A DNA stretch of 64,000 bases, taken from Candidatus Multivoradales bacterium. GTDB taxonomy: Bacteria; Acidobacteriota; Thermoanaerobaculia; Multivoradales; JAHEKO01. Position 1 is the stretch's first letter. Each line of letters starts with the position of its first letter. The position numbers and the translations under genes were made by a program. This document shows positions 16,055-52,503 of this stretch, one piece after another. Location: the NCBI GenBank assembly GCA_965223855.1, contig CBDCXM010000008.1, positions 1 to 64,000 on the forward strand, written 5' to 3'. The notes under the pieces were generated by a model. That model saw only the letters and a list, made by a program, of their open reading frames with translations, was not told the origin of the DNA and ran no database searches.

Positions 16055-18664
16055 ATGCGCCAGGCCGCCATCCAAGCCCTAACGCTCGCCTGCGCTCTGA
16101 CTCCCTGGAGTCTCGCCGCATCCGAGGCCGAGCGCTCGACGGCCCCCCCGGCCTTCTGGCTCGAGGTGCTCACTCCGGGGGTCCATCGGCTGACCTTCGA
16201 CGAGCTCGAGTCCGAGGCACCGCTGCCCGAAGTCGACAGCAACCTGTTGCGGCTCACTCAGCGGGGCGAGCCGGTGCGGATCTGGGTCGACGACGGCGGC
16301 GATGGCCGCTTCGGCCGCGGAGACGCCATCGAGTTCGTCGGCCGGCACCTCGAGGGCGAGGTGTCGCATTTCCACCTGTACTCGCCGGTCAACGTCTACC
16401 GCCTTAGCGTCGAGCCGCAGCCGGCGGGGTCGGAGTCCCGCTATCGCTCACCCGAGGAAGGTCCCGGCGGCACCGTGGCCGCTCCGCTGCTGGCCCGCAG
16501 GCACTTCGAGAACGACCGGCTGATGGTGCGGTTCCGGGAAAAGCGCGGGACGCCTCCGCGCGAGACCTGGTTCTGGGAGAGGCTGACCTTCCTGGCCGGC
16601 CGGACGTTCCGCACCGAAGTCGAGCTGGACGGGCTGCTGTCCGGAGGAGGGCGCACAGCTCGAGCCAGGTTCGATCTGCGCGGATGGTCGAGGACCCAAC
16701 GAGGAGCGCGCGGCGATCAGATCGAGCATCACGTCGACGTCGCCTTCAACGGAGTCCAGGTCGGACCGGCGCAGTGGGACGGGCGCGATCCCCATTCGGT
16801 CACCTTCGAGCCTCTTCCCCCCGGCGCGCTCGCTGCGACGACACAAGTCTCTCTGTCGGTGCCCCAACGCCCCGGCCCGAACGGGACCGACCCGCTGGTC
16901 GATCTGAGCCTCCTCAACTGGTTCGAGATCGAGTATCCCCACGACGGTTCGGTCGTCCGCGACCAGACGGTGGTCCATGTTGCGGGTTCCGGCCGCCGTT
17001 CGGCGGTGTTCGAGGCACCTGGCGCCGACACCCTCACCGCCTTCTCCGACTCGGGCGAGCGCTGGTTCGCCTCCGCCGCCGACGGCGCAACGCGAGTCGA
17101 GGTGACGATCGAGGAGGATCGTGAGACCGAGGTCGTCGCCGTTCGTTCCGGAGGCCACCTCGAGGTGCACGCCGTGCGCGTCGACCGCCCCTCGGACTGG
17201 CGATCCGGCCGCCACTCCGCCGACTACCTGATGATCGCCCACGAGTCGTTGCTCGAAGGAACCCGCCGACTGGCGCGATTCCATCGCGATCGCGGGCTCG
17301 AGGTGGCGGTCGTCGACGTGCAGGACCTCTACGACGAGTTCAGCCATGGAGTCGTCGAGCCGCGAGCGATCCGCGACTTCATCGATCACGCCTACCACCG
17401 CTGGCAGGGCGGTCCTCCCCGCTTCGTGCTGCTCGTCGGCGACGCGAGCTGGGACATCGACGGTCGCAGCCTCGAGGACAGCGACTACGCAGACTGGTCT
17501 TTCCTCGAGATCGAGGCGCAGCGCGAGGGGTTCCTCAAGAACCTGAGCACGCCCTACGACGGAGCGCCGAGGATGCGCGGCCTCATTCCCACCGGCAGCT
17601 ACCGCAGCGCGGAAGGACACGCAGCGAGCGACAACTACTTCGTCGCTCTGGGCGAAGAGGACAACCTGCCGCGCCTCGCCATCGGCCGGATCCCCGTCGT
17701 CGATCCGGCAGATCTCGACGCCGTCGTCGACAAGACGATCCGCTACGTGCGCGACTCGCAAGTCGGCCCTTGGCGCCGCCGAATCCTGTGGATCAGCAAC
17801 GAAGAGGCGACGATCAGGAATCGCAACGACGAACTGGCTGCGGATCGCAACACGGCGGGATTCTCCGGCCTCAAGATCTACCCTCGCCCCGAGGAGCGAA
17901 GCAACGACGAGCACCAGCAGGCGTTGCTCGAAGCGCTCGACGACGGCCAGCTCGTCGTCTACTTCCACGGTCACGGCGGGCGCTACATCTGGCGTACCGG
18001 AGCCACCGACCACCGCAAGAACCGCGACCTGTTCAACCTCGACCATCTCGACCAGCTCGCCCCCAACGAGCGGCTGCCGGTCATCCTCAGTATGACCTGC
18101 TACTCCGCCCCGTTCGACCACCCGCTCGCCGACTCGATCGGCGAGAAGTTCCTCCGACTCCCGGAGAGTGGCGCGATCGCGGTGTTCGCGGCGTCGTGGC
18201 GCAACAGCCCGGCGCTCGACCTGAGTCAGGCGCTCGTCGAGGAGCTGACGAAGCCTCAGACGATCGGCGAGGCGATCGTGGCAGCCAAGAGCAGAACGGT
18301 CCGCAAGGACATGATCGAGACCTACAACCTGCTCGGAGATCCGGCTGTTCCGGTCGCCGCGCCTCGTCACCGGCTCGAGATCACGGCTCACCCGATCGAC
18401 GAAGGCTACGTCGTCCGCTCGCGCCTGCCGGCGACGATCGACGGATTTTCCGGCAGCGCGATCGTCGATGCCTTCGACGCCGAGGGCCGTGTCGTCGCCA
18501 GTCGCGAAGTCCGCCTCGACGAGCCTCGGCTGGAGACGACGCTGGACGGGATCGAGGGGACGCCGGTCCGGATCGGGGTCTACCTGTGGGATCCCGATCG
18601 CGGACTCGACGCCATCGGTGCCACCGACCTGGCTCCGGGGGACACGGTCCAGGGCTCGCCCTAG
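16055..18664 (+). CDS. C25 family cysteine peptidase (gingipain/PorU-like), secreted
   Basis: Signal peptide; 'FVLLVGDA', 'IGRIP', catalytic His 'FHGHGG' and Cys 'SMTCYSAPF', 'YNLLGDPA'. Confidence 0.88.
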   Translation: MRQAAIQALTLACALTPWSLAASEAERSTAPPAFWLEVLTPGVHRLTFDELESEAPLPEVDSNLLRLTQRGEPVRIWVDDGGDGRFGRGDAIEFVGRHLEGEVSHFHLYSPVNVYRLSVEPQPAGSESRYRSPEEGPGGTVAAPLLARRHFENDRLMVRFREKRGTPPRETWFWERLTFLAGRTFRTEVELDGLLSGGGRTARARFDLRGWSRTQRGARGDQIEHHVDVAFNGVQVGPAQWDGRDPHSVTFEPLPPGALAATTQVSLSVPQRPGPNGTDPLVDLSLLNWFEIEYPHDGSVVRDQTVVHVAGSGRRSAVFEAPGADTLTAFSDSGERWFASAADGATRVEVTIEEDRETEVVAVRSGGHLEVHAVRVDRPSDWRSGRHSADYLMIAHESLLEGTRRLARFHRDRGLEVAVVDVQDLYDEFSHGVVEPRAIRDFIDHAYHRWQGGPPRFVLLVGDASWDIDGRSLEDSDYADWSFLEIEAQREGFLKNLSTPYDGAPRMRGLIPTGSYRSAEGHAASDNYFVALGEEDNLPRLAIGRIPVVDPADLDAVVDKTIRYVRDSQVGPWRRRILWISNEEATIRNRNDELAADRNTAGFSGLKIYPRPEERSNDEHQQALLEALDDGQLVVYFHGHGGRYIWRTGATDHRKNRDLFNLDHLDQLAPNERLPVILSMTCYSAPFDHPLADSIGEKFLRLPESGAIAVFAASWRNSPALDLSQALVEELTKPQTIGEAIVAAKSRTVRKDMIETYNLLGDPAVPVAAPRHRLEITAHPIDEGYVVRSRLPATIDGFSGSAIVDAFDAEGRVVASREVRLDEPRLETTLDGIEGTPVRIGVYLWDPDRGLDAIGATDLAPGDTVQGSP

Positions 18665-39941: not shown

Positions 39942-40292
39942 GGCGTTCTCCTCTTCTGGTCGTTCCGTTGCGTTGAAGTCGAAGCGACCTCATGATCGCT
40001 CCGACGGGTAGACACTTCTTGACACCCGGTCTTCGACGTTCGAGCGGCGTAGGGACCGCGCCGGGTCAACGATCGGCGGCCGAGACGGCGAAAAAACGGA
40101 GCAGCGGAAGCTCCGCAAGTGCGCATGCGGGGATGCGGGTCTTGCGACCCTCTCACTACAACCACCTGGTGTCCCTCAGCCATCGTTCGGTTTCGAGCCC
40201 CCCCGGGCCCGACGTATTATGTATCAGCTTTTAGCGCACACCCTCCGTCGCCGCAAGGGAGTCCGGCACAACGTCCGACTGGTGGAAGCCCG

Positions 40293-43200
40293 ATGGGTCT
40301 CGACCCTAGCCCGGGCCCCTGCTCCCTCGGGTCCCTTTGTGGGGTAAACTCCCGAGTCTTGAGAGGAAATCGGCTTTCGGCGCGACTCTCGGGGAGATGC
40401 GAGCCGAAGCGAAGACGGGGCATACGTCCTGCCCTTCGCGCCACGCTCGTCGCATCCTCGCTCCTGTGGCTGGTCTCGACGGCCTCCGGGGCGGCGCCTA
40501 CCTACCGATTCCACTACCCGCTCACCGGCGACTCCTCGGTCATCTACGACGTCTCGCACATCGTGCAGGACGGCCGCGGCTTCATCTGGCTCGGCTACGA
40601 GCGCAGCGTCGACCGGTACGACGGCTCCCGCGTCACGAGAGTCAAGTTGCCGGGGTCGGCGTCGCTCACAGAGATGACCACGTCCAACGACGGCCATCTG
40701 TGGCTGGCGACGCGTTCTGAAGGTCTGCTGGTCTGGGACGCGGCCACGGAGAGCTTTCTGCGCTGGACGCCCGACCCCGGTTCACCGGCCGTCCCTCTCG
40801 ATCTCGAAGCACTGACCGTCGGTCCGAGCGGGTTGCTGTGGGCGGCGACGAGTGACGGCAGAGTCGTCAGGATCGATCCCATCCGACGGCAGGCGACCGC
40901 AGTCGCGGCTCTGTCCGGCGGCGGCAACGTCTCGATTCGCAGCCTGGCCACCGGTCCCGGCGGCCAGGTCTGGATAGGGACGGGCAGCGGCGATCTCTAC
41001 CGGTTCGACCCTGCATCCAACGAGTCGACCCGACTCCGGGAGGCTGTCGGCGCTGCGCCGGTCTCGGCGCTGATCGCCGACGAGGAAGCGGTCTGGGCGG
41101 CGGGCGAGACGGGCCGGCTGATCCGCATCGATCCTCGCAACCTCGAGACGACGGCGATGGTCGTGGCTACCCGTGAGCGTGCCGAGCCACAGTCGATCCT
41201 CTCGCTGGCGCTCGACCCGCAGGGCAAACTCTGGGTCGGCACCGTCGATGGTCTGCGTCAGTTGTCGTCGGACGAACGGCGCCTCGAGACGGTACGAGCC
41301 GACCAGCGCGAGTTCAGCGAGCCCAACAGCAGCGCCGTGCGCGCGCTCTACCTCGATCGAGGCGAAGTGCTGTGGATCGCGAACGACGGCGGCATCGCCA
41401 CGGTCACGACCCGGGCCAGCGGCTTCACCCACTGGCGCATCGAAACGGGTGGGGCGACACACCCCGTCACCTCTCTCGCTGTCGAGGAGGACGGAACACT
41501 GTGGGCGGGCACCTACGACGGTGGGCTCTTCCGGAGATCTCCGTCGGGTGTGGTCGAGCAGATGGACCGCTCCCCCATCTCCGTCCGCGACGAGGGCGGA
41601 ACCGACCGTTGGCGCTCGAGCGCCAACGACTTGCACATCGCTCCTGACGGCACGTTGTGGATGGGGACGATGCGCAAGGGACTCGCCAGATGGGATCCGG
41701 CGGCGGGAGAGTTCGACTACCTCCCCTTCGACCCCCGCACCGAGGGTGCGCTCAACAACTCGACGGTGACCGTGCTGGCCGATCGCCGCGCCGGTGGACT
41801 GTGGGTGGGCACCTTCGCCGGAGGACTCAACCAGCTGGACACCGAAACCGGCAGATTTCGGGCCGAGAAGAGCGATCCCGACGACCCGACAACCCTGAGT
41901 CAGAACCAGATCAGAAGCCTGCTGGAGGATTCGGCAGGGCGTCTGTGGGTCGGCACGCGAGACCACGGGCTCAATCTCCGACGTCCCGGTGATCGAGGCT
42001 TCCTCCGCCTGAGGATGGACACCACCGACAGCCGGGCGCTCCAGGACGACACCGTCTTCGCTCTGACGGAAGATTCAGACGGGAGGATCTGGGTGGGTAC
42101 CTGGGGAGGGCTTCATCAGGCGCTCGTGACCGACAACGGCGTCGAGTTCCGGCACTACGGCCGCGAGGAAGGCCTCCAGGGCCGCAGGGTCTATTCGATC
42201 CTCGAAGACGCAGACGGCATGATCTGGCTCAGTACTTCGAGCGGTATCTCGAAGCTCAACCCGACGACCAACACGATCGTCAACCTGGGCCTCGATCACG
42301 GACTTCCGCCGACCGGATTCAACTTCAACGCCTATGCCCTGGGTCCGGACGGGACCCTGCACTACGGCAGCAGCTACGGTGTGACGTCGCTCGATCCGAA
42401 GCAGACTCTGGTCGAGGTCTACACGCCGGAGATCATCCTCACTGGAATCTCGAAGACCGGAGGGTCGACCACGGTAGAGACGGACTCGGTCACGCTCTCC
42501 TACAGCGAGGGGTTCGTGACGTTCGACTTCAGCCTCCTCGACTTCGGCGCACAGGACCGCAACCGCTACGAGCACAGGCTCGACGGGTTCGACGACGAAG
42601 GAAAGTGGGACGACACCGGCTCCCACCAGCGGGCGACCTACTCCCAGCTTCCTCCCGGCCGCTACACGTTCCGCGTCCGCGGAGCCAACAGCGAAGGGGT
42701 CTGGTCGGCGAACGAAGCGCGCGCCGAAGTTCACGTCCTGCCTCCGCCCTGGGCCACCTGGTGGGCCTACACCGCCTACATCGCGCTCGCCGTAGCGATG
42801 GTTCTCGCCTATGCCCGGATGCAGTCGCGCCGCCAGCAACGCGAGGCGACGTACCGCCGCCGGCTGGAGAGCGAAGTGCACCAGCGCACGCAGGAACTCG
42901 CCGAGCAGAACGAGAAGCTGCGCTACGCCAACGAGTTGCTCGAGGTGGCGAGCGTCACCGACTCACTCACAGGCGTACGGAACCGGCGCTTCCTGCTGAC
43001 GACGATCGATCAGGACATCGCTCTCGTCGATCGAGCCTTCGCCAAGGACGCCGTCGATCCCGAGAACTCCGCGTTCGTCTTCATCCTGTTCGATCTGGAC
43101 GGATTCAAGGAGATCAACGACGGCTATGGCCATTCGGCAGGCGACCTGGTCCTCTACCAGGTTCGGGATCTCCTCGCGCAGGCGTGCCGCACTTCCGACA

Positions 43201-43640
43201 CCCTGGTGCGATGGGGCGGGGACGAGTTCCTCATCGTGGCGAGAGAGGCGACGAGACGACACGTCGAGGCCCTCGCGGAGAGGATCCGTCAGAGCGTCTC
43301 CGGCCACGAGTTCGACGTCGGCGGCAGCACTCCCGTACGCCTCACCTGCTCCCTAGGCTTCGCCTGCTATCCGTTCGTCGCCGGAAACCCCAAGCTGTAC
43401 TCGTGGGAAGAGGTGATCGACATCGCCGACAGGGCTCTGTACGTGGCAAAGCGCCATGGACCGAACATGTGGGCTGGAATCTTCGGCACCGAGCGAACGG
43501 AAGAGACACCCTCGGAGGATCTCCTGACGCTGATCCTGGAGCGACCGGAGCTTCTCAACGACGAGGGGAGCATCCGGCTCGTCACCTCGAAGCCCACGCC
43601 ATACGCCATTCACCCCAGATCCAAGCCTAGCGGCAGGTAA
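40293..43640 (+). CDS. Membrane sensor diguanylate cyclase: periplasmic beta-propeller repeats + Y_Y_Y domain + TM + GGDEF
   Basis: Repeated 'D..G.LWVGT..GL' blades, 'YEHRLDGFD...ATYSQLPPGRYTFRVRGAN', TM helix, 'RTSDTLVRWGGDEF'; start uncertain (40293 to ~40400). Confidence 0.92.
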   Translation: MGLDPSPGPCSLGSLCGVNSRVLRGNRLSARLSGRCEPKRRRGIRPALRATLVASSLLWLVSTASGAAPTYRFHYPLTGDSSVIYDVSHIVQDGRGFIWLGYERSVDRYDGSRVTRVKLPGSASLTEMTTSNDGHLWLATRSEGLLVWDAATESFLRWTPDPGSPAVPLDLEALTVGPSGLLWAATSDGRVVRIDPIRRQATAVAALSGGGNVSIRSLATGPGGQVWIGTGSGDLYRFDPASNESTRLREAVGAAPVSALIADEEAVWAAGETGRLIRIDPRNLETTAMVVATRERAEPQSILSLALDPQGKLWVGTVDGLRQLSSDERRLETVRADQREFSEPNSSAVRALYLDRGEVLWIANDGGIATVTTRASGFTHWRIETGGATHPVTSLAVEEDGTLWAGTYDGGLFRRSPSGVVEQMDRSPISVRDEGGTDRWRSSANDLHIAPDGTLWMGTMRKGLARWDPAAGEFDYLPFDPRTEGALNNSTVTVLADRRAGGLWVGTFAGGLNQLDTETGRFRAEKSDPDDPTTLSQNQIRSLLEDSAGRLWVGTRDHGLNLRRPGDRGFLRLRMDTTDSRALQDDTVFALTEDSDGRIWVGTWGGLHQALVTDNGVEFRHYGREEGLQGRRVYSILEDADGMIWLSTSSGISKLNPTTNTIVNLGLDHGLPPTGFNFNAYALGPDGTLHYGSSYGVTSLDPKQTLVEVYTPEIILTGISKTGGSTTVETDSVTLSYSEGFVTFDFSLLDFGAQDRNRYEHRLDGFDDEGKWDDTGSHQRATYSQLPPGRYTFRVRGANSEGVWSANEARAEVHVLPPPWATWWAYTAYIALAVAMVLAYARMQSRRQQREATYRRRLESEVHQRTQELAEQNEKLRYANELLEVASVTDSLTGVRNRRFLLTTIDQDIALVDRAFAKDAVDPENSAFVFILFDLDGFKEINDGYGHSAGDLVLYQVRDLLAQACRTSDTLVRWGGDEFLIVAREATRRHVEALAERIRQSVSGHEFDVGGSTPVRLTCSLGFACYPFVAGNPKLYSWEEVIDIADRALYVAKRHGPNMWAGIFGTERTEETPSEDLLTLILERPELLNDEGSIRLVTSKPTPYAIHPRSKPSGR

Positions 43641-45391
43641 TGCGGCCCGCCCGCGGCGACGCCGCCAGGTCGGCCGCTTCCGCCACCCTTCGGGTCCTGC
43701 TCGTCTGCGCCGAGAGTCTCAAGAGCGAGGCGCTCAGACTGCTCGAGGAGGCCGGAGACCGCATACGCGTGGTGATCGCCTCCGAATCGGAGGCGGCGGA
43801 GGCGATGCTCGGTGCAGGGCGCTTCGACGCGGTACTGATCGAGTCGACGGCGGACGGCACCTCCGGCGAAGAGCTGTGCCGACGGTTCCGTGAGCGCTCG
43901 CGGTTCGACGATGTGCGTGTCGTAGTCGTCGTCGATGGCGGCAGGGAAGAGACCGACGAGGCCCTCGCCGCCGGCGCGACCGAGGCGGCACCGCGCCCCC
44001 TCGCTTTGCCGGCACTGCTGGGACACCTCGGTGGCACCCGTCTCCAGATCGAGCAGCCGGAGGTCGATGATGGGAAGCGCGACTCGAGGGTCGATCCACT
44101 GACCTCGCTGCCGGATCGCAACGCCTTTCGCCGACTGCTCGCGGAGCGTCTCGAAGCGAGGCAGGGAGACGGGCCCGTAGCGGCGATCCTCCTCGACATC
44201 GACCGCTTCAAGAAGATCAACGACAGTCTCGCCCACTCTTTCGGCGACCGGGTGCTCGTGGAGTTCGCGCGCCGCCTCAGCGTGGCACTCGGCGGGCCTG
44301 CCGAAGGGCGGGCCCTCGGTCGATACGGAGGAGACGAGTTCGCGGTGATGCTCGGCGACCTGGAGCGCGTAGGCGACGTCGCACAGGCGGCACGACACAT
44401 TCTCGCGACCCTGGCCCGCCCCCTTGCCGTGGAGGACCGCGAGATCTTCATCACGGCAAGCGTCGGGGCGGCCGTGGCACCGGCCGACGGCAAGACCGCG
44501 GAGCTGCTGCTGCGCAACGCCGAGACCGCGATGTACGCGGCCAAGAAGGCGGGGCGCGACACGTTCCGCTTCTATACCGACCCGATGAGCGCTTCGGTCG
44601 TGCGCAAGTTCGATCTCGAAAACAAGCTGAGGCGAGCGCTCGAGCGTGACGAATTCGAGCTCCTCTATCAGCCGATCATCAATGCAAGACGGCAGAGCCT
44701 GACCGGCGTCGAGGCGCTGTTGAGGTGGAACCGGGCGGGCGAGGAACCGAGTCAGCCGGAGGAGTTCATCGCCGTCGCCGAGGAGACCGGACTGGTGGTG
44801 GAGATCGGTGAATGGGTGCTCCGGAAGGCCTGCGCGCAGGCGCACGAGTGGAACCGCTCGTCCCCCTCCCCGGTTCGCGTGACCGTCAACGTCTCACATC
44901 GCCAACTGCGCAGCCGCGGCTTCGTCAGCTCGGTGGCGAGGATTCTCGGGGACACCGGGCTCGATGCCCGCCTCCTGGAACTCGAGATCACCGAAAGCAG
45001 CGTCGTCCGCAACGAGCGCGAGACGCTCACCGCACTCCACCAGCTCAAGGTCCAGGGGATCCGCCTCGCGGTCGACGACTTCGGGACCGGACACTCGGCC
45101 CTGAGCTATCTCAAGAAGTTCCCGCTCAACACCCTGAAGATCGATCAGTCCTTCACGCGCGGGATCACGACCGACGCCGACGATGCCGCCATCATCACCG
45201 CGACGATCAACATGGCCCACGGGTTGAACATGACAGTCGTCGCCGAAGGGGTGGAACTCGAAGAACAGCTCTACTTCCTGAGCCAGAACCAGTGCGACGA
45301 AGTCCAGGGGTTCCTCTTCGCCGCTCCCCTCGACGTCGAAGAGGTCGGTCGGCGGCTCCATGCCCAGAGCTGGGGCCCCGCCTCCGGCTGA
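43640..45391 (+). CDS. Receiver-like + GGDEF + EAL c-di-GMP enzyme
   Basis: 'RYGGDEF', 'LLYQP', 'EALLRW', 'DDFGTG', 'EGVE'; TAATG overlap with the DGC. Confidence 0.92.
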   Translation: MRPARGDAARSAASATLRVLLVCAESLKSEALRLLEEAGDRIRVVIASESEAAEAMLGAGRFDAVLIESTADGTSGEELCRRFRERSRFDDVRVVVVVDGGREETDEALAAGATEAAPRPLALPALLGHLGGTRLQIEQPEVDDGKRDSRVDPLTSLPDRNAFRRLLAERLEARQGDGPVAAILLDIDRFKKINDSLAHSFGDRVLVEFARRLSVALGGPAEGRALGRYGGDEFAVMLGDLERVGDVAQAARHILATLARPLAVEDREIFITASVGAAVAPADGKTAELLLRNAETAMYAAKKAGRDTFRFYTDPMSASVVRKFDLENKLRRALERDEFELLYQPIINARRQSLTGVEALLRWNRAGEEPSQPEEFIAVAEETGLVVEIGEWVLRKACAQAHEWNRSSPSPVRVTVNVSHRQLRSRGFVSSVARILGDTGLDARLLELEITESSVVRNERETLTALHQLKVQGIRLAVDDFGTGHSALSYLKKFPLNTLKIDQSFTRGITTDADDAAIITATINMAHGLNMTVVAEGVELEEQLYFLSQNQCDEVQGFLFAAPLDVEEVGRRLHAQSWGPASG

Positions 45392-45438
45392 CGGAGTCGT
45401 CGGCCCTCCGCGATTCTCATCGCGACCGCTGCCCCGCG

Positions 45439-45444
45439 TATACT
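45439..45444 (+). promoter_or_regulatory. Putative -10 box TATACT, 6 nt before the GTG start (leaderless transcript)
   Basis: AT-rich hexamer in GC-rich DNA; no SD before the GTG. Confidence 0.45.
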
Positions 45445-45450
45445 CCGCTC

Positions 45451-45879
45451 GTGTCGATCCCGGCGGCCACCCTCGAACTGCTCCGCGACCTCGCCTGCCG
45501 CGAGCCGGTGTCGCTCATCATCTCGGGAGCCTGCATGGAGCCGGTCCTGCGCGACGGCGATCGGGTGACGGTCAGCCGACGGCGACGCTACGCTCCCGGC
45601 GACATCGTGGCGTTTCAGCGAGCCGGAGGGGAACTGGTGGCCCACAGGGTCCTCGGCTACTGTCCGACTCGCAGCGGCTGGAAGCTGATGGCGAGAGGAG
45701 ATCGCCTGTCGCGTGAGGACGAGCCGGTGACGCTCGATCGAGTGGTCGGCCAGGTCGTGGCGACCACCGCTGGAGCACTCGACAAGCCCGGCCCGCAACT
45801 GCGCTTGCTGTGCTCTTTCGAGCTGCTCCGACGACTCGCCCGGCGGGCCCTGTCATGCTTCTCGGCGAACGCTTCCTGA
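45451..45879 (+). CDS. S24/S26 peptidase-family protein
   Basis: 'ISGACMEPVLRDGD', 'PGDIVAF', 'VAHRV', 'RGD'. Confidence 0.8.
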   Translation: MSIPAATLELLRDLACREPVSLIISGACMEPVLRDGDRVTVSRRRRYAPGDIVAFQRAGGELVAHRVLGYCPTRSGWKLMARGDRLSREDEPVTLDRVVGQVVATTAGALDKPGPQLRLLCSFELLRRLARRALSCFSANAS

Positions 45880-46790
45880 CACAGCCCGATCTGTTCCCGG
45901 CACGCCTGGCCGGGACACCCGCCGGGAACGAGGCGGTCGAGCTCGAGTTGCCCGGCGGCCCCTACGATGTCGCGGGCCTCTCGAGCCGCCAACGAGACGC
46001 TCTCGAGGGCCGTTACGGCCCGCTGTGCAAGAGCTCCGGAGCGCGGAGCCTCGCGCAGGCGGTGCCCATTCGTGTCTTCATGGTGGACAGCGGAGAGTTC
46101 CTCGCCGGGGACACGGCCGGGAGGGTCAACGACTTCGACTTCGACTATCTGGAAGACCGCGTCCGGCTGGCAGGCCACCGGGTGATGGCGCAGCTGCGCC
46201 TCGCCCCCTCATCTACGCTGGCCCTGTGGACCAGCGTCACCGACGAGGGGCCCTTCCTCGAGCTGTTCGAGAACTGCTTCAGGGTCTGCGTCGCCTACAG
46301 GCTGCTGGAGAGTGGGGGCGCTCTCGTTCATAGCGCAGCGATCGCCGACAACGGCAAGGCGTGGCTCTTCTTCGGTCACTCGGGGGTCGGCAAGACGACT
46401 CTGGCGCGAAGCGCCCGCGAGCAGGGCTTCGAGCTGCTGAGTGACGACCTCAACGCGGTCGTCGCACGCGGGGACGGCCTGGCACTCGTGAGAATGCCGT
46501 TCTCGGGCGAGCTGCGCCACCCTCCCGCCCCCGCCACCGAAGTGCCCCTGACCGCCGCCGCGGCGCTGGTGCAGGCCGAGTCGGTCGACTGGAAGCCGCT
46601 GACCTCGGGCCGCGCGATGGCGGCCCTGGCGTCGAGCTGCCCGTTCCTCAATCGCGATCCGCATCGGCTCCCCAGCCTTCTCGATACCCTTCGGGCGATG
46701 GCGGACCGCGTACCGATCGGAGAACTGTCGATGACCCTGAACCCGAATCTGAGGCAGGTGTTGCCTCGTCCCGACGAGGTGACGGCTTGA
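45855..46790 (+). CDS. HPr-kinase-related P-loop protein
   Basis: 'LVHSAAI', 'GHSGVGKTT', 'LLSDD', 'PFSGE'. Confidence 0.8.
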   Translation: MLLGERFLTQPDLFPARLAGTPAGNEAVELELPGGPYDVAGLSSRQRDALEGRYGPLCKSSGARSLAQAVPIRVFMVDSGEFLAGDTAGRVNDFDFDYLEDRVRLAGHRVMAQLRLAPSSTLALWTSVTDEGPFLELFENCFRVCVAYRLLESGGALVHSAAIADNGKAWLFFGHSGVGKTTLARSAREQGFELLSDDLNAVVARGDGLALVRMPFSGELRHPPAPATEVPLTAAAALVQAESVDWKPLTSGRAMAALASSCPFLNRDPHRLPSLLDTLRAMADRVPIGELSMTLNPNLRQVLPRPDEVTA

Positions 46791-47065
46791 AGCCGGAGCT
46801 GTCTGCCGTCCTCGAGCGGGCAGACGACGTCCGCTACCGCTCGGTCGAGCGTGAGACCGTCGTCATCCGCCAGCAACAGGCCGAGGCACTCGTACTCAGC
46901 GAGGTGGCCGGGCGGATCCTCGACCTGCTCGACGGCACGCGAAGCCTCGAAGAGGTCGTCGCCCGCCTGCTCGACGAGTTCTCCGTCGATCGGGCGGTTC
47001 TGGAAGAGGACGTCAGGGCCTACGCCGGAGAACTTCTCGAGACCGGACTGGTGCTCGAAGCATAG
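46787..47065 (+). CDS. PqqD-family RiPP recognition element (RRE)
   Basis: 'LSEVAGRILDLLDGTRSLEEVVARLLDEFSV...DV..Y..EL...GLV' pattern. Confidence 0.9.
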   Translation: MKPELSAVLERADDVRYRSVERETVVIRQQQAEALVLSEVAGRILDLLDGTRSLEEVVARLLDEFSVDRAVLEEDVRAYAGELLETGLVLEA

Positions 47066-47173
47066 TCTCGATCGGGCAGCCTGGACGGCACGAGTCGAAC
47101 TGCACCACCGCGACGCGGCGCCGGCTGGCCTTCTGCGGGAAGGTCGCAGCGACCCCTTCTCGAAGGCCGGAGC

Positions 47174-47338
47174 TCAGGACTGAATCGGGCCGACCGTACA
47201 GCTGAGGGGGTCGGTCTTGCCGGTGTCGCAGACGACCGCGAGAGCCTCGAGGCGCTCGCGCGAGAGCGTCCGCGGCTTGCGGTAGGGCCTCTTGCTCTCG
47301 TTCTCCCCGCCCCTGCCTACGCCATGACTCATCTTCAT
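47174..47338 (-). CDS. Putative RiPP precursor, 54 aa: MKMSHGVGRGGENESKRPYRKPRTLSRERLEALAVVCDTGKTDPLSCTVGPIQS
   Basis: Translated by hand; lies just downstream of the radical SAM gene; YxxP leader motif; two Cys in the C-terminal core; purine-rich RBS. Confidence 0.82.
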   Translation of the reverse strand: MKMSHGVGRGGENESKRPYRKPRTLSRERLEALAVVCDTGKTDPLSCTVGPIQS

Positions 47339-47396
47339 CCTACAGCCCCCCTCGATTCGATCCCAGAACCCCCTCCGAGACCCCGATCATACGTGC

Positions 47397-48488
47397 CTAC
47401 TCGACGATCGGCAACAGCGCAGAACCGGGAGCCGCAGCCTCCTCTTTGAGCTGCCTGCGCGCCGCAGCCGCCGGATAGAGACCCAACGGACTGCCGGTCT
47501 GCGTCTCGGCGTTCCCGGGACAGAAGGCCATCTGGGATCCGAACGTACCCTGGCCCTCGATCGATCTCTTCACTTCTTCGGTCGTCGAGCGGACCTCCTC
47601 GAGCCCTGCCGAGCCGCTCCACAGCTCTTCGATCGAGGTTTCGTGGAGATTGCCCACGGCTCGTCTCCACTGAACGCAGGGATACACGGTACCGAATGGA
47701 TCGATCGCAATCGTCGAGGAGCCGGCCCCGCAGTGCTTGCTGGTCGGTACGGCGGGTAGCAGGTCGTCTCCCTCTCTGGACACCAGAATCGTCGCCGCCG
47801 CCTGCCGTTCGGTCTCGCGCTCGGCACGCTTCGACTGAATCCTGAAGAGTCTCAGCACCGCCTCCCTCGAAGCCCGGATCGACTGCGGCTCCGCATCGCC
47901 GTCGTCGCGCGGCGTCACCTCGGGATCGATCTGCATCGGCAACCCGAGGTCTTCGACCAGTTCGATCATCGCCTCGAGCTCGTGCTCGTTCCAGGCGGTA
48001 AGCGTGGTGTTGACCTTCATCCGGAGGCCGAGTTCGCCGGCCTCCCTGAGGTTCTCCAGCAACCGGTCGAAGCTTCCCGGTACGCGGGTCTGGCGATCGT
48101 GCGTCGCGGCCGTGGCTCCGTGGAGACTGGTTTCGATCTGAAACGGGTCGACCTCGTCCCGGAGCCGGCGCGCCACGTCCCCTCTCAGCGCGTGACCGTT
48201 CGACTTCAACCGCACCACGAAGCCGAGATCCCTCGCGCGACGACCGAGCTCGAAGAAGTCCGGATGCGCCAGGGGCTCCCCTCCGCTGAGAATGAGATTC
48301 AACGTCCCGAGGCGCTCCAGACCGGAGAAGAGCTCGAAATACTGCTCCTTGTCGAGCGGCTTGCCCCGCAGCGACAGATCGTTGTAGCAGAAAAAGCAGT
48401 CGAGGTTGCACCGGTAGGTCAGCTCGATGAGGGCTGAAAACAGGTGGTTCTGCTGCCAGGTCTTGTGGACGATCTTGGAGAAGCTCAT
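47397..48488 (-). CDS. Radical SAM protein with SPASM/Twitch domain (peptide maturase)
   Basis: 'CNLDCFFC', 'SGGEPL', 'CGAG...DPFGTVYPC...GNL', 'FCPG'. Confidence 0.92.
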   Translation of the reverse strand: MSFSKIVHKTWQQNHLFSALIELTYRCNLDCFFCYNDLSLRGKPLDKEQYFELFSGLERLGTLNLILSGGEPLAHPDFFELGRRARDLGFVVRLKSNGHALRGDVARRLRDEVDPFQIETSLHGATAATHDRQTRVPGSFDRLLENLREAGELGLRMKVNTTLTAWNEHELEAMIELVEDLGLPMQIDPEVTPRDDGDAEPQSIRASREAVLRLFRIQSKRAERETERQAAATILVSREGDDLLPAVPTSKHCGAGSSTIAIDPFGTVYPCVQWRRAVGNLHETSIEELWSGSAGLEEVRSTTEEVKRSIEGQGTFGSQMAFCPGNAETQTGSPLGLYPAAAARRQLKEEAAAPGSALLPIVE

Positions 48489-48641
48489 GGTGGAAAGCGC
48501 CTGGTCGGGAAGCGGGGCGGAACGTGGCAGCGCGGGGCTCGTGACGGTCGAAAAGTATAGCGGAGCGCCTGCAAGGCAGTTCCTGCGCCGGTCTCCCGCC
48601 CGGTTCGGGCGAGTCGATTCCCCTCTGATAGCCTCCCGAGC

Positions 48642-49550
48642 GTGAGCGTCCGCACCCGCACGACGGCCGTGCTGATGATCGGGTTCGGTTTCGCGGTGTC
48701 GGCGGCCGGGGCCAACCCCGCAGTCGCAACGGCGACCCTCCTCGGCAATCAGGAGTTCGCGCTCTGCCGCGATCTCGGTAACCGGCTCGGCAGCGTCAGT
48801 CTCGAGCAGTGCCGCGCCGCCGGTCTCAGTCACGCCGGCGCCTGGTCGGCCGAAGGGAGGGCGATCGTCTACCGGGACTTTCCCCGGCTGCCCGGGAGGA
48901 AGCCGCTGGGTAAGGTCCTTCTCATCGGTGGCATCCACGGCGACGAGTACTCGTCGATCAGCATCGTCTTCCGCTGGCTTTCGACGCTGCGCAAGTACCA
49001 CTCGGGACTCTTCGAGTGGCGCATCGTTCCCGTGCTCAATCCTGACGGTCTACTGCGCCGACCCGCACAGCGCATGAACGCCAACGGGGTCGATCTCAAT
49101 CGCAACTTCCCTTCTCCCAACTGGGCGTCGGAGAGTCGCGACTACTGGGTTCGCCGGACCTCCCGCAATCCCCGCCGATACCCCGGGCCGGCCGCGTTGA
49201 GCGAGCCGGAGAGCCGCTGGCTGGCCGATCAGATCGCCGACTTCGAACCGGACGTCATCGTCTCGGTCCACGCGCCTCACAGCATCGTCGACTACGACGG
49301 ACCCGCAGCGGCGCCGGAGAAACTCGGCTCGCTCTATCTCAAGCTCCTCGGCACCTACCCCGGATCTCTGGGTCGCTATGCCGGCGTCCACATGGACATC
49401 CCGGTCGTGACGATCGAACTCGCGAGCGCGGGCTCGATGCCCTCGGCGGGCGAGCAGCGCGACATCTGGATCGACCTCGTTCGCTGGCTGAGGGGCAAGA
49501 TGCCCGAGCGGGCTCTCGGTCCGGGCAGCCCCCGGACCGGCGGCGGCTGA
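48642..49550 (+). CDS. M14 zinc carboxypeptidase / murein peptide amidase A-like
   Basis: 'GGIHGDE', 'NPDG', 'NANGVDLNRNFP', 'SEPES', 'VSVHAP'. Confidence 0.88.
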   Translation: MSVRTRTTAVLMIGFGFAVSAAGANPAVATATLLGNQEFALCRDLGNRLGSVSLEQCRAAGLSHAGAWSAEGRAIVYRDFPRLPGRKPLGKVLLIGGIHGDEYSSISIVFRWLSTLRKYHSGLFEWRIVPVLNPDGLLRRPAQRMNANGVDLNRNFPSPNWASESRDYWVRRTSRNPRRYPGPAALSEPESRWLADQIADFEPDVIVSVHAPHSIVDYDGPAAAPEKLGSLYLKLLGTYPGSLGRYAGVHMDIPVVTIELASAGSMPSAGEQRDIWIDLVRWLRGKMPERALGPGSPRTGGG

Positions 49551-49559
49551 GGCCCCGTC

Positions 49560-50771
49560 TCAGCCTTCGAAGACGATCTGCCAGCGACCGTCCTCGAACA
49601 GCCAGTACTGGCGCTTCTTCTTCGACCCGCGAAAGTTGTCGCTCTCGTAGCGCTGCAGGAAATCCACGACGACCATCGCGTCTTCGCCCGGATAGCCGAA
49701 GATCGAGAGATCCTCGAGAGCGACCCTGATGTAGCGCTTCGACGGGTTGACCCTTCTCTTGTGAGCTGCGAAAGCGGCGCGATTCATGTCGCTCGTCCGG
49801 AAACTCGAGGCGTAGTGCCCGAGGTAGGAGTCGGCGTCGCGGCTCTCCCAGTCGAGCCTCCACTGCTCGATCGCCTCGCCCACCGACTCGCGGACCGAGC
49901 GCATCGAGTCGGGCGACACCCAACGAACGCCGCGGGTGAGGACGACCGGAGTCGAACCGACATCCACCTGCTCCCTCAGCGTGGCGAAATCTTCGTTGCT
50001 GAGGGTGACGCACCCGCGGCTCGACAGGGGCGGGCGGCTGTACCGTTCGGACTCGGTACCGTGAATCCAGATCCCACTGCCGGTGCGTCCCTGCAGACGA
50101 TCCCATTCGTTGGGATAGTCGATCGGGAACGCCCCGAGGCCGTAGAGATCCGGCAGCGTCTCGCCCGGCAGATAGGAGGAGACGCGGTAGAGACCGGTCG
50201 GCGTCTTCTCGTCCCCCTCGTAGCGCTTGTCCGTGCCCCCCTTGCCGATCGAGACGTAGAAGTCGAGCACCCTCTCCGGCCGGTCACCGACCAGGGAGAA
50301 GAGGTACAGCCGGTAGGCTTCGGTATCGACGAGAATCACGTTGCGAGTCTTCTCGGGGAGCTGCAACAGCTCGGCAGGGACGGCCTCGGACGGCGGCCCT
50401 TCGAGATACCGGGCCAGACGCGCCTGAGCCTCCTCCCGAAGTCCCGAGACGCTTTCCACGCCGGCGGCTTCTCCACCGAACGCGGCCAGCGGCTCTCGCA
50501 TCGCCTGCAGAAGGTCTCCTCGCACCAGCTGCGCGAGTTCGAAGTCCGGACGACGCTCGAGAATCCGCGAGGTGTGATCCAGAGCGTCCTCGAGACGACC
50601 GGCCTGGATGTCCAGGAGCGTCCAGATGAGGCGTTCCTCGATCGACGAGGTCGCCTGCCCCGAAGCCCCGATCTGGTGCCCGGCTTCGTCGAGTGCCTCG
50701 ACGCTTCCCGAGCCCAGAGCACAGAGCGAGGCCGCCAGAACAGCGATCCCGAGGTGCCGGCGTCGGCTCAC
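49560..50771 (-). CDS. L,D-transpeptidase (YkuD) with C-terminal NTF2/SnoaL-like domain
   Basis: 'GDEKTPTG', 'IWIHG...SRGCV'. Confidence 0.88.
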   Translation of the reverse strand: MSRRRHLGIAVLAASLCALGSGSVEALDEAGHQIGASGQATSSIEERLIWTLLDIQAGRLEDALDHTSRILERRPDFELAQLVRGDLLQAMREPLAAFGGEAAGVESVSGLREEAQARLARYLEGPPSEAVPAELLQLPEKTRNVILVDTEAYRLYLFSLVGDRPERVLDFYVSIGKGGTDKRYEGDEKTPTGLYRVSSYLPGETLPDLYGLGAFPIDYPNEWDRLQGRTGSGIWIHGTESERYSRPPLSSRGCVTLSNEDFATLREQVDVGSTPVVLTRGVRWVSPDSMRSVRESVGEAIEQWRLDWESRDADSYLGHYASSFRTSDMNRAAFAAHKRRVNPSKRYIRVALEDLSIFGYPGEDAMVVVDFLQRYESDNFRGSKKKRQYWLFEDGRWQIVFEG

Positions 50772-51781
50772 GACTCGGTCGACTCCTCTGCATCGATGCG
50801 CCAGGAATCTCCGGATCGGACGAGATCGAGCACCTTGACGACCGTGTCCTGAAAGCTGTCCGAGCGGTAGCGCTGCAGGAATCTCACCTGCACTCGACCG
50901 GAGCCGGCGGGACGTACCGCGATCGACTCGACGGCGACTTCGATGAACCTCGGCCCTTCGATCCTCTGCCTTCTTTGCCGTTCCCACTCCGCCCGACTGC
51001 GATCGGCCGGGGAGAAGTCCGGCGAGTAGTAGCCGAGATAGGCATTCACGTCCTGATCGGACCATGCCTGTGCCCAGGCGCGGACGAACCCCGCCACGGC
51101 CGCCGCATCGAACTGCGCCCTCGGCTCGTCGGCGGCGGGGCCGGAGGCATCACCTTGCCCGCCGGTGGGAGTCGGGTCTCCGAGCGGCTCGGCCGGAGCG
51201 ACCCGCTCGGTGAGAGGAGCCTTGACGGCAACTCTTCCCGACGAGGGAGCCGCCGTCTGCGGGACGGCTTCGCCCCCGTCGCTCCCGGACTCGAGGCCGC
51301 CGAGCAGCCGAAGATCCGGGCCGGCCGTCCCATCGCTCGACTCCTGACCGAGCGCGCGGTCGTAGGCACGACTCGCGAGCTTCCCGTAGACCTTCGTGAG
51401 GTTGTCGTAGGCGGTGCCGTAGCTCGAATGAGTGGCGAGCGCCAGCTTGAGGATCTCGACGGCACGCTCGTACTCGCCCCGCTCGGCGTAGAGGACAGCA
51501 AGGTTGTTGAACGGCTCCGGGTAGTCAGGATGGCTGCGCGTCAGTTCGAGGAAGATCTCCTCAGCCTCGGCCTCCCGGCCCGATCGAGCGAGCACGACCC
51601 CCTTGACGAACTGCGCTTCGGCGGAACCGTTGCCCTCGATCTCCGCATCCAACAGGCTGAGAGCCTCCGGTAGCCGGCCCTCCGACGCTGCTCTCGTTGC
51701 TCGCTCGATCGCCCCCTCCTGCGCCGCCAGTCCGCCGGCGAGCAGAGCGGCCGCAACCGCCGCGCACACCCGTCTCGTCAT
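50768..51781 (-). CDS. TPR protein with C-terminal NTF2/SnoaL-like domain
   Basis: 'PEPFNNLAVLYA' TPR; 'WAQAWS..DVNAYLGYYSPDF'. Confidence 0.82.
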   Translation of the reverse strand: MTRRVCAAVAAALLAGGLAAQEGAIERATRAASEGRLPEALSLLDAEIEGNGSAEAQFVKGVVLARSGREAEAEEIFLELTRSHPDYPEPFNNLAVLYAERGEYERAVEILKLALATHSSYGTAYDNLTKVYGKLASRAYDRALGQESSDGTAGPDLRLLGGLESGSDGGEAVPQTAAPSSGRVAVKAPLTERVAPAEPLGDPTPTGGQGDASGPAADEPRAQFDAAAVAGFVRAWAQAWSDQDVNAYLGYYSPDFSPADRSRAEWERQRRQRIEGPRFIEVAVESIAVRPAGSGRVQVRFLQRYRSDSFQDTVVKVLDLVRSGDSWRIDAEESTES

Positions 51782-51870
51782 TGCCTCTCCTTCACGCTTT
51801 CCTCAGGCTTCCTGCCGCCAAAGCCGAGTCAAATGCTAGCACGGCTCCGGGCGGCCCGAACTGCGCGACA

Positions 51871-52503
51871 ATGGCTCGAAATCGGAACTTTTTCCGGCTT
51901 CGGGCGTTGGAGCTAGACGTGGAGACGGCCGTTCACCATACGCATGAACCGGACGACGCGGAACTCTTCCGTCGGGCGCGTGCCGGTGACCACCAGGCCC
52001 TCGGCGACCTGGTCGACCGGCACAAGGACGCGCTGGTCAACTACCTCACCCGGATCAGCGGCCGCCGCGAGACCGCCGAGGACACCGCGCAGGAGACCTT
52101 CCTCAAGCTCCTTCAGCACAGCGACCGTTACGTCGAGCGCGGACGCTTGCTCCCGTACATTTACCGCATCGCCACCAACCTCGTGCGCTCGGAGCAGAGG
52201 AGAAACCAGCGCTGGCGGCTCCTCCATCCCCGGCTGCTCGCAGGGAGCGAGCGCTCGGCCCCTCCGGCTCAGCATCACGGGATGGAACGCCGCCAACTCG
52301 GCAAAGTGCTGACCGGTGCGCTGGCTCAGCTGCCGTCCCGCTATCGGGTCCCTGTCGTCCTGCGAGACATCGAGGGCTGGGCCTACTCCGAGATCGCCGA
52401 CGTGCTCGGGGTCAGGCCGGGCACCGTCAAATCCCGCCTGCACCGGGGTCGCGCGCTCCTGCGCGACCTCGTTCGTCCTCACTGGAACGGAGTTTCGTCA
52501 TGA
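51871..52503 (+). CDS. ECF sigma-70 factor
   Basis: 'AEDTAQETF', 'YSEIADVLGVRPGTVKSRLHRGR'; start 51871 or 51919. Confidence 0.92.
   Translation: MARNRNFFRLRALELDVETAVHHTHEPDDAELFRRARAGDHQALGDLVDRHKDALVNYLTRISGRRETAEDTAQETFLKLLQHSDRYVERGRLLPYIYRIATNLVRSEQRRNQRWRLLHPRLLAGSERSAPPAQHHGMERRQLGKVLTGALAQLPSRYRVPVVLRDIEGWAYSEIADVLGVRPGTVKSRLHRGRALLRDLVRPHWNGVSS

Follow-up and report, generated by a model that had tools for sequence, protein, structure and literature searches.

A 64,000-nucleotide stretch of DNA from a Candidatus Multivoradales bacterium (Acidobacteriota, Thermoanaerobaculia; contig CBDCXM010000008.1, positions 1 to 64,000 of the forward strand), referred to here as the window, contains at 45451-48488 a five-gene cassette that joins a recognition, kinase and peptidase toolkit of the linear polyphosphorylated peptide (LPP) type to a radical S-adenosylmethionine (SAM) enzyme, around a precursor whose core is distinctive in its Cys-Lys-Cys arrangement and its final Ser. 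On balance, we favour reading it as a pathway to a peptide made on the ribosome and modified after translation (RiPP) in which, guided by a PqqD-type protein, the radical SAM enzyme would form a Cys/Lys cross-link, the kinase would act on the terminal Ser54, and the peptidase would cut after Ala34. What is observed is the gene content, the folds and catalytic residues of the encoded proteins, how often the genes occur together, and how the precursor is conserved; from these we infer every step of the mechanism, the cross-link and the phosphorylation included. A fuller proposal, put forward more tentatively, is that the cassette represents a so far unrecognised class of RiPP, one that abounds in Thermoanaerobaculia and is scattered through other phyla, and which combines the LPP-type toolkit of a RiPP recognition element (RRE), an HPr kinase (HPrK)-like kinase and a cytoplasmic signal-peptidase-fold peptidase switched to Cys with a radical SAM enzyme bearing one auxiliary cluster; its product, of about 20 residues, would carry a radical Cys/Lys cross-link and a (poly)phosphorylated C-terminal Ser.

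The five open reading frames (ORFs) form two convergent units, and all lie where the original prediction had placed them, with the identities that it gave:

45451-45879, forward strand: signal-peptidase-I-like (S24/S26) leader peptidase with a GTG start, 142 amino acids, matching Pfam Peptidase_S24
45810 (GTG) or likely 45855 (ATG) to 46790, forward strand: P-loop kinase of the HPrK/phosphoenolpyruvate carboxykinase (PEPCK) fold, with weak ScmC and HprK_rel matches
46787-47065, forward strand: discrete PqqD-type RRE, 92 amino acids, matching PF05402
47174-47338, reverse strand: precursor peptide ORF, 54 amino acids (52 from the second ATG), recognised by conservation
47397-48488, reverse strand: radical SAM enzyme whose C-terminal SPASM domain is truncated (Twitch-like), 363 amino acids, matching Radical_SAM and SPASM

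The start of the PqqD gene overlaps the stop of the kinase gene by 4 nt, and the precursor ORF begins 58 nt downstream of the radical SAM gene. Orthologues of the kinase, and a 311-residue version in the protein collection, point to its ATG at 45855 rather than the GTG at 45810, while the ATG of the radical SAM gene at 48488 is backed by orthologues starting MSF. The window genome holds a single cassette, with a single copy of the precursor peptide.

This gene set recurs in other genomes. The radical SAM enzyme is matched at E<=1e-20 in 17 of 41 genomes, comprising the window genome (G000) and 40 relatives, and in 15 of them, G000 included, the match is a clear orthologue at E<=1e-109; the eleven orthologous loci that were fetched are those with room on both sides. 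A scan with the radical SAM alignment, using one genome per species, returned 584 pattern matches, 408 of them confirmed by tblastn, and the best 80 of these 408 (L035-L114) are referred to below as the related loci. Nearly all come from metagenome-assembled genomes of Thermoanaerobaculia or other Acidobacteriota, with one each labelled Vicinamibacteria, Sedimenticola and Polyangiaceae, and the five-gene set is complete in 57 of the 80, adjacency being kept while order and orientation vary. In the wider clade, the peptidase, kinase, PqqD and radical SAM genes usually follow one another on one strand, and the precursor lies behind the radical SAM gene in convergent orientation; relative to this arrangement, the radical SAM gene is inverted in the lineage of the window. 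When the phylum is sampled evenly, 14 of 401 genomes, again including G000, have an orthologue at E<=1e-80, a patchy distribution that is concentrated in the window's class.

The original prediction had described a peptide with KRPYRKP in its leader and a C-x9-C core, and both are seen in the ORF at 47174-47338, where the core ends in Ser. Two in-frame ATGs follow a G-rich stretch, and the protein collection already lists, as a product of the window itself, the 52-residue version starting at the second; Pfam has no match for the peptide. Its predicted leader comprises residues 1-34 (47237-47338), and its predicted core residues 35-54, VVC...IQS (47177-47236). Alignment of 14 orthologues leaves Y19, P22, E31, A34, C37, K41, C47 and the last residue, S54, invariant, within a near-invariant plan of a [Y/W]xxPx[I/V]L leader motif, an Ala placed three residues ahead of the first Cys, and a Cys-x(n)-Lys-x(n)-Cys core. 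The YxxP leader of the original prediction recurs here in the form [Y/W]xxP.

That prediction had also staked itself on the conservation of the peptide beside orthologues of the radical SAM enzyme, which is what the loci display. A homologous peptide ORF occurs in all eleven fetched orthologous loci, mostly adjoining the radical SAM gene, though about 5 kb away in L031 and in two copies in L026, and a hidden Markov model census finds the peptide beside the radical SAM gene in 67 of the 80 related loci, all 68 peptides ending in Ser. Most of the 13 loci lacking it stop at a contig edge just past the radical SAM gene; L070, L073, L079 and L107 have room available, yet contain no peptide within about 6 kb. 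The position of the peptide varies, being downstream of the radical SAM gene on the same strand in the window lineage, and convergent with or upstream of it in others. Hence the adjacency of the two genes is not simple inherited synteny.

Among 1.84 billion representative proteins, the precursor profile matches 762 at E<=1e-3, of which 111 reach E<=1e-10. The best 150 of the 762 all contain exactly two Cys within their last 26 residues, and 148 of them end in Ser and two in Thr; at its aromatic position, the leader motif has Y in 137, W in nine and F in two. An E..A..C anchor is found in 148 of the 150, and all 148 anchored sequences have a Lys between the two Cys. The last residue is the only invariant hydroxyl residue of the precursor. 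The conservation of the ORF in 14 orthologues, 67 of 80 loci and 762 profile matches rules out a spurious reading frame, and on this evidence the 54-codon ORF is a genuine precursor gene, far beyond chance.

The closest described system is the LPP pathway, which is a better relative to name than SynChlorMet, with which the original prediction had drawn its comparison. In the available portions of the report that defines the LPPs of Bacillota (Popov et al., Nat Commun 2026; PMC13381572), to which every comparison with LPPs made here refers, the conserved genes of the LppA/B/K/S/N/D clusters are those for LppS (a signal peptidase resembling SipW), LppB (the discrete RRE), LppK (a kinase resembling HprK), LppN (an NTP-transferase) and LppD (an exporter resembling MsbA). 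Processing and phosphorylation of the precursor by the peptidase, RRE and kinase are shown there experimentally: LppS, with catalytic residues S29, H68 and D93, removes the leader after T-1 in a reaction requiring LppB, and LppK places up to four phosphates on core Ser3. The leader motif is given as YxxPxVLxHQxIxFETxxS (PMC13381572). The pathway is called restricted to Bacillota, and keyword searches of that report find no mention of radical SAM, SPASM or Acidobacteria in its main text; its supplementary table does list acidobacterial signal peptidase I (SpI) homologues with a nearby 'other' RRE, in cluster 3 of a sequence similarity network (SSN), which are left unstudied there (PMC13381572).

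The two systems share a discrete RRE, a soluble leader peptidase of the SipW/Sec11 type and an HprK-like kinase. The spacing of the peptidase triad is equal, S29/H68/D93 in LppS corresponding to C28/H65/D90 here, and the leader register is identical, such that Y19, P22, [I/V]24 and L25 match the LPP motif, with the invariant Ala34 in the place of T-1 and the invariant Cys37 in that of Ser3, the residue phosphorylated at +3. Nevertheless, they differ in several respects. Firstly, a radical SAM enzyme is present here, and none in the LPP pathway. Secondly, LPP cores are long and variable, whereas those here have about 20 residues, a Cys-Lys-Cys loop and an invariant terminal Ser. Thirdly, residues -3 to -1 are A-x-A here, rather than F-E-T. 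Fourthly, the nucleophile of LppS is Ser, whereas that of the peptidase here is mostly Cys. Fifthly, the residue that LppK phosphorylates, core Ser3, is replaced by an invariant Cys at core position 3. Finally, LppN and LppD belong to the LPP core set, whereas neither has a counterpart within 40119-52503 of the window.

The S26-like enzyme to which the original prediction had assigned leader removal has both the signal-peptidase fold, in its predicted structure, and a putative catalytic triad, Cys28-His65-Asp90. It scores 25.7 bits against Pfam Peptidase_S24 (cut-off 23.3), and its best NCBIfam match is the archaeal-type signal peptidase I TIGR02228, at 36 bits against a cut-off of 51.85. The AlphaFold2 model (predicted local distance difference test, pLDDT, 91.9) is closest to human SEC11C/A, catalytic subunits of the signal peptidase complex (7p2q_A, E 1.4e-4; 7p2p_A, E 2.3e-4; query TM-score, TMq, 0.54), followed by the C-domains of LexA and lambda repressor. 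It has no membrane anchor, and includes an N-terminal helix at 5-17 and a long basic C-terminal helix at 115-141. The signal-peptidase boxes are invariant in the alignment (M29, P31, G50-D51, H65-R66, G83-D84 and D90), M29 and P31 sitting right after the nucleophile position, and His serves as general base, which is the case in SipW/Sec11-type enzymes too. Codon 28 in the window (45532-45534) encodes Cys, and the 64 orthologous ORFs in the related loci have Cys at this position in 56 cases and Ser in six, with two unmatched through truncation or disruption. Judged by this alignment, the S26-type fold of the peptidase has undergone a natural switch from Ser to Cys.

The precursors carry a putative matching site. 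In the 148 anchored sequences, position -1 of the inferred cleavage site is always Ala, and position -3 is A in 87, V in 27, G in 11, L in seven, S in five, T in five, I in three, F in two and M in one, such that 145 of the 148 have A, V, G, L, S, T or I. Hence these residues fit the -3/-1 rule of signal peptidases, and the soluble peptidase would cut after Ala34, freeing a core of 20 residues.

Recognition of the leader would fall to the PqqD-type protein, which would bind at [Y/W]xxPx[I/V]L and present the precursor to the other enzymes. The presence of a PqqD protein beside the radical SAM gene, as originally claimed, is confirmed by its score of 53.1 bits against PF05402, and the gene is recovered in the related loci as well; all NCBIfam PqqD models score below their cut-offs, the PqqD model itself reaching 37.6 bits against 46 and the others less. 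A predicted complex of this protein with the precursor scores 0.56, against 0.04 for the best control, with runs sharing at least 96% of contacts and a partner pLDDT of at least 54. The mark used for such scores is reached by 116 of 157 solved complexes and two of 215 mismatched pairs, with scores that pass it at or below 0.60 confined to 18 of the solved complexes and both of the passing mismatches, and the value obtained may reflect likeness to already solved complexes of RREs with leaders. The prediction consequently lends weak support to binding.

Several observations weigh against the proposed mechanism. Firstly, the query used finds no S24-like gene in three of the eleven fetched orthologous loci (L026, L027 and L029). 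Secondly, Pfam and NCBIfam scans of 40119-52503 detect no cyclase, nucleotidyltransferase or transporter, meaning the cassette is missing the exporter and nucleotidyltransferase of the LPP set; that no lasso cyclase or exporter is adjacent had been recognised in the original prediction. The remaining points concern the two modifying enzymes, and are taken with the alternatives to which they give rise.

The kinase falls below every curated kinase-family cut-off. Its NCBIfam scores are 31.1 bits against 125 for ScmC, 30.2 against 200 for HprK_rel_A and 24.9 against 200 for HprK_rel_B, with E-values of 1e-7 to 1e-5, which also removes the HPr-rel-A and HprK-related kinase systems TIGR04352 and TIGR04355 from consideration. 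In Pfam, the matches are a sub-threshold PEPCK_ATP and a marginal AAA of 22.5 bits (cut-off 21.2), with no stretch passing alone, and Hpr_kinase_C gives no match at E<=0.01. A profile of the kinase finds ATP-dependent PEPCK (1.7e-5) and the HPr kinases 1jb1 and 2qmh (1.4e-3) among sequences of solved structures, over the P-loop region. The AlphaFold2 model of the kinase (pLDDT 86.2; predicted template modelling score, pTM, 0.86) leads in Foldseek to PEPCK first (E 2.8e-6), with HPr kinase 1ko7 at rank 34 (E 2.2e-4) over 135 columns. VIA-align places residues 22-326 of the model on PEPCK 2pc9_D with a Z of 16.2, a root-mean-square deviation of 4.0 and 261 aligned residues, and its best 50 matches are all PEPCK, which does not thereby exclude HPrK chains. 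The fold as a whole therefore resembles PEPCK more than HPrK, and on the model the protein is a two-domain member of the PEPCK/HPrK P-loop superfamily. The HPrK-like character claimed in the original prediction is seen in its motifs, as H174, a Walker A sequence of G189-x-S-G-x-G-K-T, and L210-S-D-D213 are invariant across 13 sequences.

Ser54 is preferred as the target of this kinase because it is the sole invariant hydroxyl residue, and because +3 is Cys; the enzyme would phosphorylate the side chain of this C-terminal residue, perhaps several times. Yet the LPP kinase acts on core Ser3 rather than at the C-terminus, and core +3 is the invariant Cys37 in this family, leaving Ser54 a candidate target. 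The best surviving alternative, which we regard as unlikely, accepts the cassette and precursor as described, and denies that the kinase-like protein phosphorylates the C-terminal Ser. It could instead modify another residue near the cleavage site, +3 among them, spend ATP on a different step, such as an activation for elimination, or serve as a scaffold; the terminal Ser would then matter to the radical SAM enzyme or to recognition. MftC, a radical SAM enzyme of a related type, acts at the C-terminus of its precursor. The register of the LppK target, the fit of the whole model to PEPCK and the missed cut-offs all suit this alternative, which must nevertheless contend with the retention of the Walker A, His and SDD motifs, the placement of the only invariant hydroxyl on the last residue, and a direct precedent: in the available part of PMC8498205, HPr-kinase homologues phosphorylate the C-terminal Ser of paeninodin-type lasso precursors. 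Phosphorylation of Ser54 consequently remains the reading that we prefer.

The radical SAM enzyme scores 78.7 bits against Pfam Radical_SAM and 35.0 bits against SPASM (residues 253-300). Its CxxxCxxC motif starts at residue 27, hence there is no fused N-terminal RRE, and its only invariant Cys are C27, C31, C34, C253, C271 and C323. The last three alone are conserved past the SAM-cluster motif, so the enzyme fails the seven-Cys SPASM motif (including CxxCx5Cx3C), which indicates a truncated, Twitch-like domain in which one auxiliary cluster is expected. Twitch-type enzymes carry one auxiliary cluster only, in which a coordination site stays open, and from its sequence the same would be expected here. 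With its SAM cluster and a single auxiliary cluster held by three conserved Cys, the enzyme would modify the Cys37-x3-Lys41-x5-Cys47 loop, the most likely product being a thioether or other carbon cross-link of the invariant Cys, possibly involving the invariant Lys.

The two Cys could, however, simply form a disulfide. With a disulfide loop of this plain kind, the site of radical SAM action would lie elsewhere, for example on Lys41 or on backbone carbons through epimerisation, methylation or a carbon-carbon link, and the product would not be a thioether peptide. By score, the enzyme is nearest to NirJ (118.6 bits against 515, the best NCBIfam match), AhbD (110.3) and PqqE (94.7 against 381), rather than to known thioether-forming maturases, with MftC at 90.9 against 265 and, lower, StsB at 88, ScmE at 79.9 against 400, the GeoRSP radical SAM enzyme at 66.6 against 400 and ScmF at 64 against 400. 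Hence it matches sactipeptide maturases, represented by StsB, no better than enzymes that form no thioethers. The possession of one auxiliary cluster only, and a loop Lys as invariant as the Cys, also suit this alternative. Nonetheless, we give it a low probability: an auxiliary cluster ligated by three Cys leaves a site open to a substrate thiol, the thioether-forming SkfB (2.9e-15) is one of only four solved relatives at E<=1e-10, the others being PqqE (6c8v, 6.4e-24) and two BlsE entries, and a precursor in the cytoplasm would not readily oxidise to a disulfide. A radical cross-link within the Cys-Lys-Cys loop is accordingly retained in the favoured mechanism.

In the NCBIfam scan, none of the cassette proteins clears any curated cut-off. 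Hence the cassette is not a true SynChlorMet, GeoRSP, PQQ or mycofactocin system and, judged by these scores, it lies outside every curated family tested. SynChlorMet (Scm) is known from database models only, as NCBIfam TIGR04248-TIGR04251. The resemblance noted in the original prediction stands at the level of the superfamily, as both have a PqqD-like protein, radical SAM/SPASM enzymes and an ScmC-type P-loop protein, and a word-based search of 8000 candidates recovered 119 kinase homologues at E<=1e-10, those with names being called 'hypothetical protein', for nearly all of which, as for the window kinase, a match to PF27840 is precomputed, a family that carries the name 'ScmC' (Atlas, Pfam 38.1). 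Membership itself does not hold, as the ScmC, ScmE and ScmF cut-offs are missed widely, there is no ScmD match at E<=0.01, and one radical SAM enzyme is found here rather than two. Nor is a genuine SynChlorMet system found in two loci with weaker radical SAM matches (L032 and L033), where all Scm scores are below 83 bits against 400. L032 (4749-8053; contig C27 of G025) instead contains a distant paralogous cassette, with a radical SAM enzyme of 30% identity, a kinase, an S24-like peptidase, and a candidate precursor with a YxxP leader, three Cys and a Ser at its end.

The other peptide-maturing radical SAM systems were likewise rejected, with the PqqE, MftC and GeoRSP radical SAM cut-offs missed by the scores above, and the GeoRSP PqqD model reaching 37.1 bits against 100. 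The cassette does resemble PqqE/PqqD and MftC/MftB in pairing a radical SAM enzyme without a fused RRE with a small PqqD partner on a short precursor, and differs from PqqE and MftC in having only three conserved C-terminal Cys, with one auxiliary cluster expected, and a different precursor motif. The least probable of the alternatives, that the peptide is a sacrificial scaffold from which the radical SAM enzyme builds a small cross-linked unit of invariant Cys, Lys or Ser, to be excised and used within the cell as a cofactor-like or signalling molecule in the manner of PQQ or mycofactocin, accords with the discrete PqqD partner, with PqqE as the nearest solved relative and PqqE and MftC among the best peptide-maturase matches, with the lack of a linked exporter, and with the few invariant core residues, but is quite improbable given how widely the PqqE and MftC cut-offs are missed, the lack of oxidoreductase or further tailoring genes of PQQ- or mycofactocin-type pathways, the leader-type signal-peptidase homologue as sole peptidase, and the patchy distribution across the phylum.

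Paeninodin-type lasso peptides share a [Y/W]xxP leader, a discrete PqqD RRE, an HPr-kinase homologue and a precursor ending in Ser, as far as the available part of PMC8498205 describes them. They differ in that the cassette lacks both a macrolactam cyclase and a B2 transglutaminase-type protease, and contains a radical SAM enzyme instead. A lasso peptide was rejected, as 40119-52503 contains neither an Asn-synthetase-like cyclase nor a B2 protease, and the only PF13471 match of the genome is on contig C9.

Literature searches found no description of the cassette or its product. Were the fuller proposal correct, no described natural product would share its combination of a radical cross-link with a (poly)phosphorylated C-terminal Ser. 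The cassette unites two chemistries that have so far been studied separately, radical SAM cross-linking and HPr-kinase-type peptide phosphorylation, and extends beyond Bacillota a signal-peptidase-type leader protease whose first report from RiPP pathways dates from 2026 and which, in this cassette, takes a natural form with a Cys nucleophile. The family is large, with 762 representative precursor clusters, and its cassette is often met among the uncultured Acidobacteria of soil and sediment. The so far uncharacterised product of this conserved five-gene set should be cross-linked, and is probably phosphorylated, starting from a Ser-terminated peptide, for which the invariant Y19, P22, A34, C37, K41, C47 and S54 are ready targets for mutagenesis.

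Other features of the cassette and its flanks in the window are:

47386-47414, reverse strand: promoter-like site TTGCCG-17-TATGAT, a consensus match only
40119-43640: protein with propeller/Y_Y_Y and GGDEF domains, flanking the cassette upstream
43640-45391: GGDEF-EAL protein, receiver-like, directly upstream of the cassette
48642-49550: M14/MpaA-like peptidase
49560-51065: YkuD L,D-transpeptidase with a Cds6_C domain
within 49560-51781, adjoining the YkuD gene: tetratricopeptide repeat (TPR)/Cds6_C protein
within 40119-52503: extracytoplasmic function (ECF) sigma factor

The promoter-like site straddles the stop codon of the radical SAM gene, immediately upstream of the precursor ORF, and is a candidate only, with one match to the consensus against 0.1 expected in shuffled sequence. 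No intrinsic terminator was found between the convergent units, where the local hairpin is no better than in shuffles (z 0.45). Two c-di-GMP genes (40119-45391) directly precede the cassette; the GGDEF-EAL gene was rejected as part of the system, as among the eleven orthologous loci fetched it keeps this place in only four, from the closest relatives (L021-L024), and L025 gives no more than a partial match to GGDEF. The M14 peptidase was also set aside, having no match in any of 14 fetched loci. The neighbouring YkuD and TPR genes (49560-51781) both end in a Cds6_C NTF2-like C-terminal domain.

In relatives, further genes are found in the vicinity of the cassette. A cluster of PorU/gingipain-like Peptidase_C25 sequences occurs near it in 39 of the 80 related loci, and in L039 (7280-11776, reverse strand) a 1499-residue Peptidase_C25/PorU-like protein adjoins the precursor gene; the window has its own C25 gene at 17225-18352 (forward strand), about 30 kb upstream of the cassette. 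PF14907 nucleotidyltransferase genes are near the cassette in 30 of the 80 loci. About 18 loci have a second, lasso-like set, consisting of a PqqD protein, a lasso B2 protein (53.3 bits against a cut-off of 33), an HprK-related kinase and a PF14907 nucleotidyltransferase, in which no cyclase was seen; it lies a few kb from the cassette in L041 (1242-3236), and is also present in L046, L050, L052, L054, L055 and others. Its presence beside the cassette mirrors the paired arrangement of LPP and paeninodin genes reported in Bacillota. In the window genome, the PF14907 matches are on contig C9, where a weak match to the kinase profile, PF14907 matches and the PF13471 (lasso B2-like) match fall within about 8 kb (approximately 1784008-1791478), and this group is probably the lasso-like set that adjoins the cassette in relatives.

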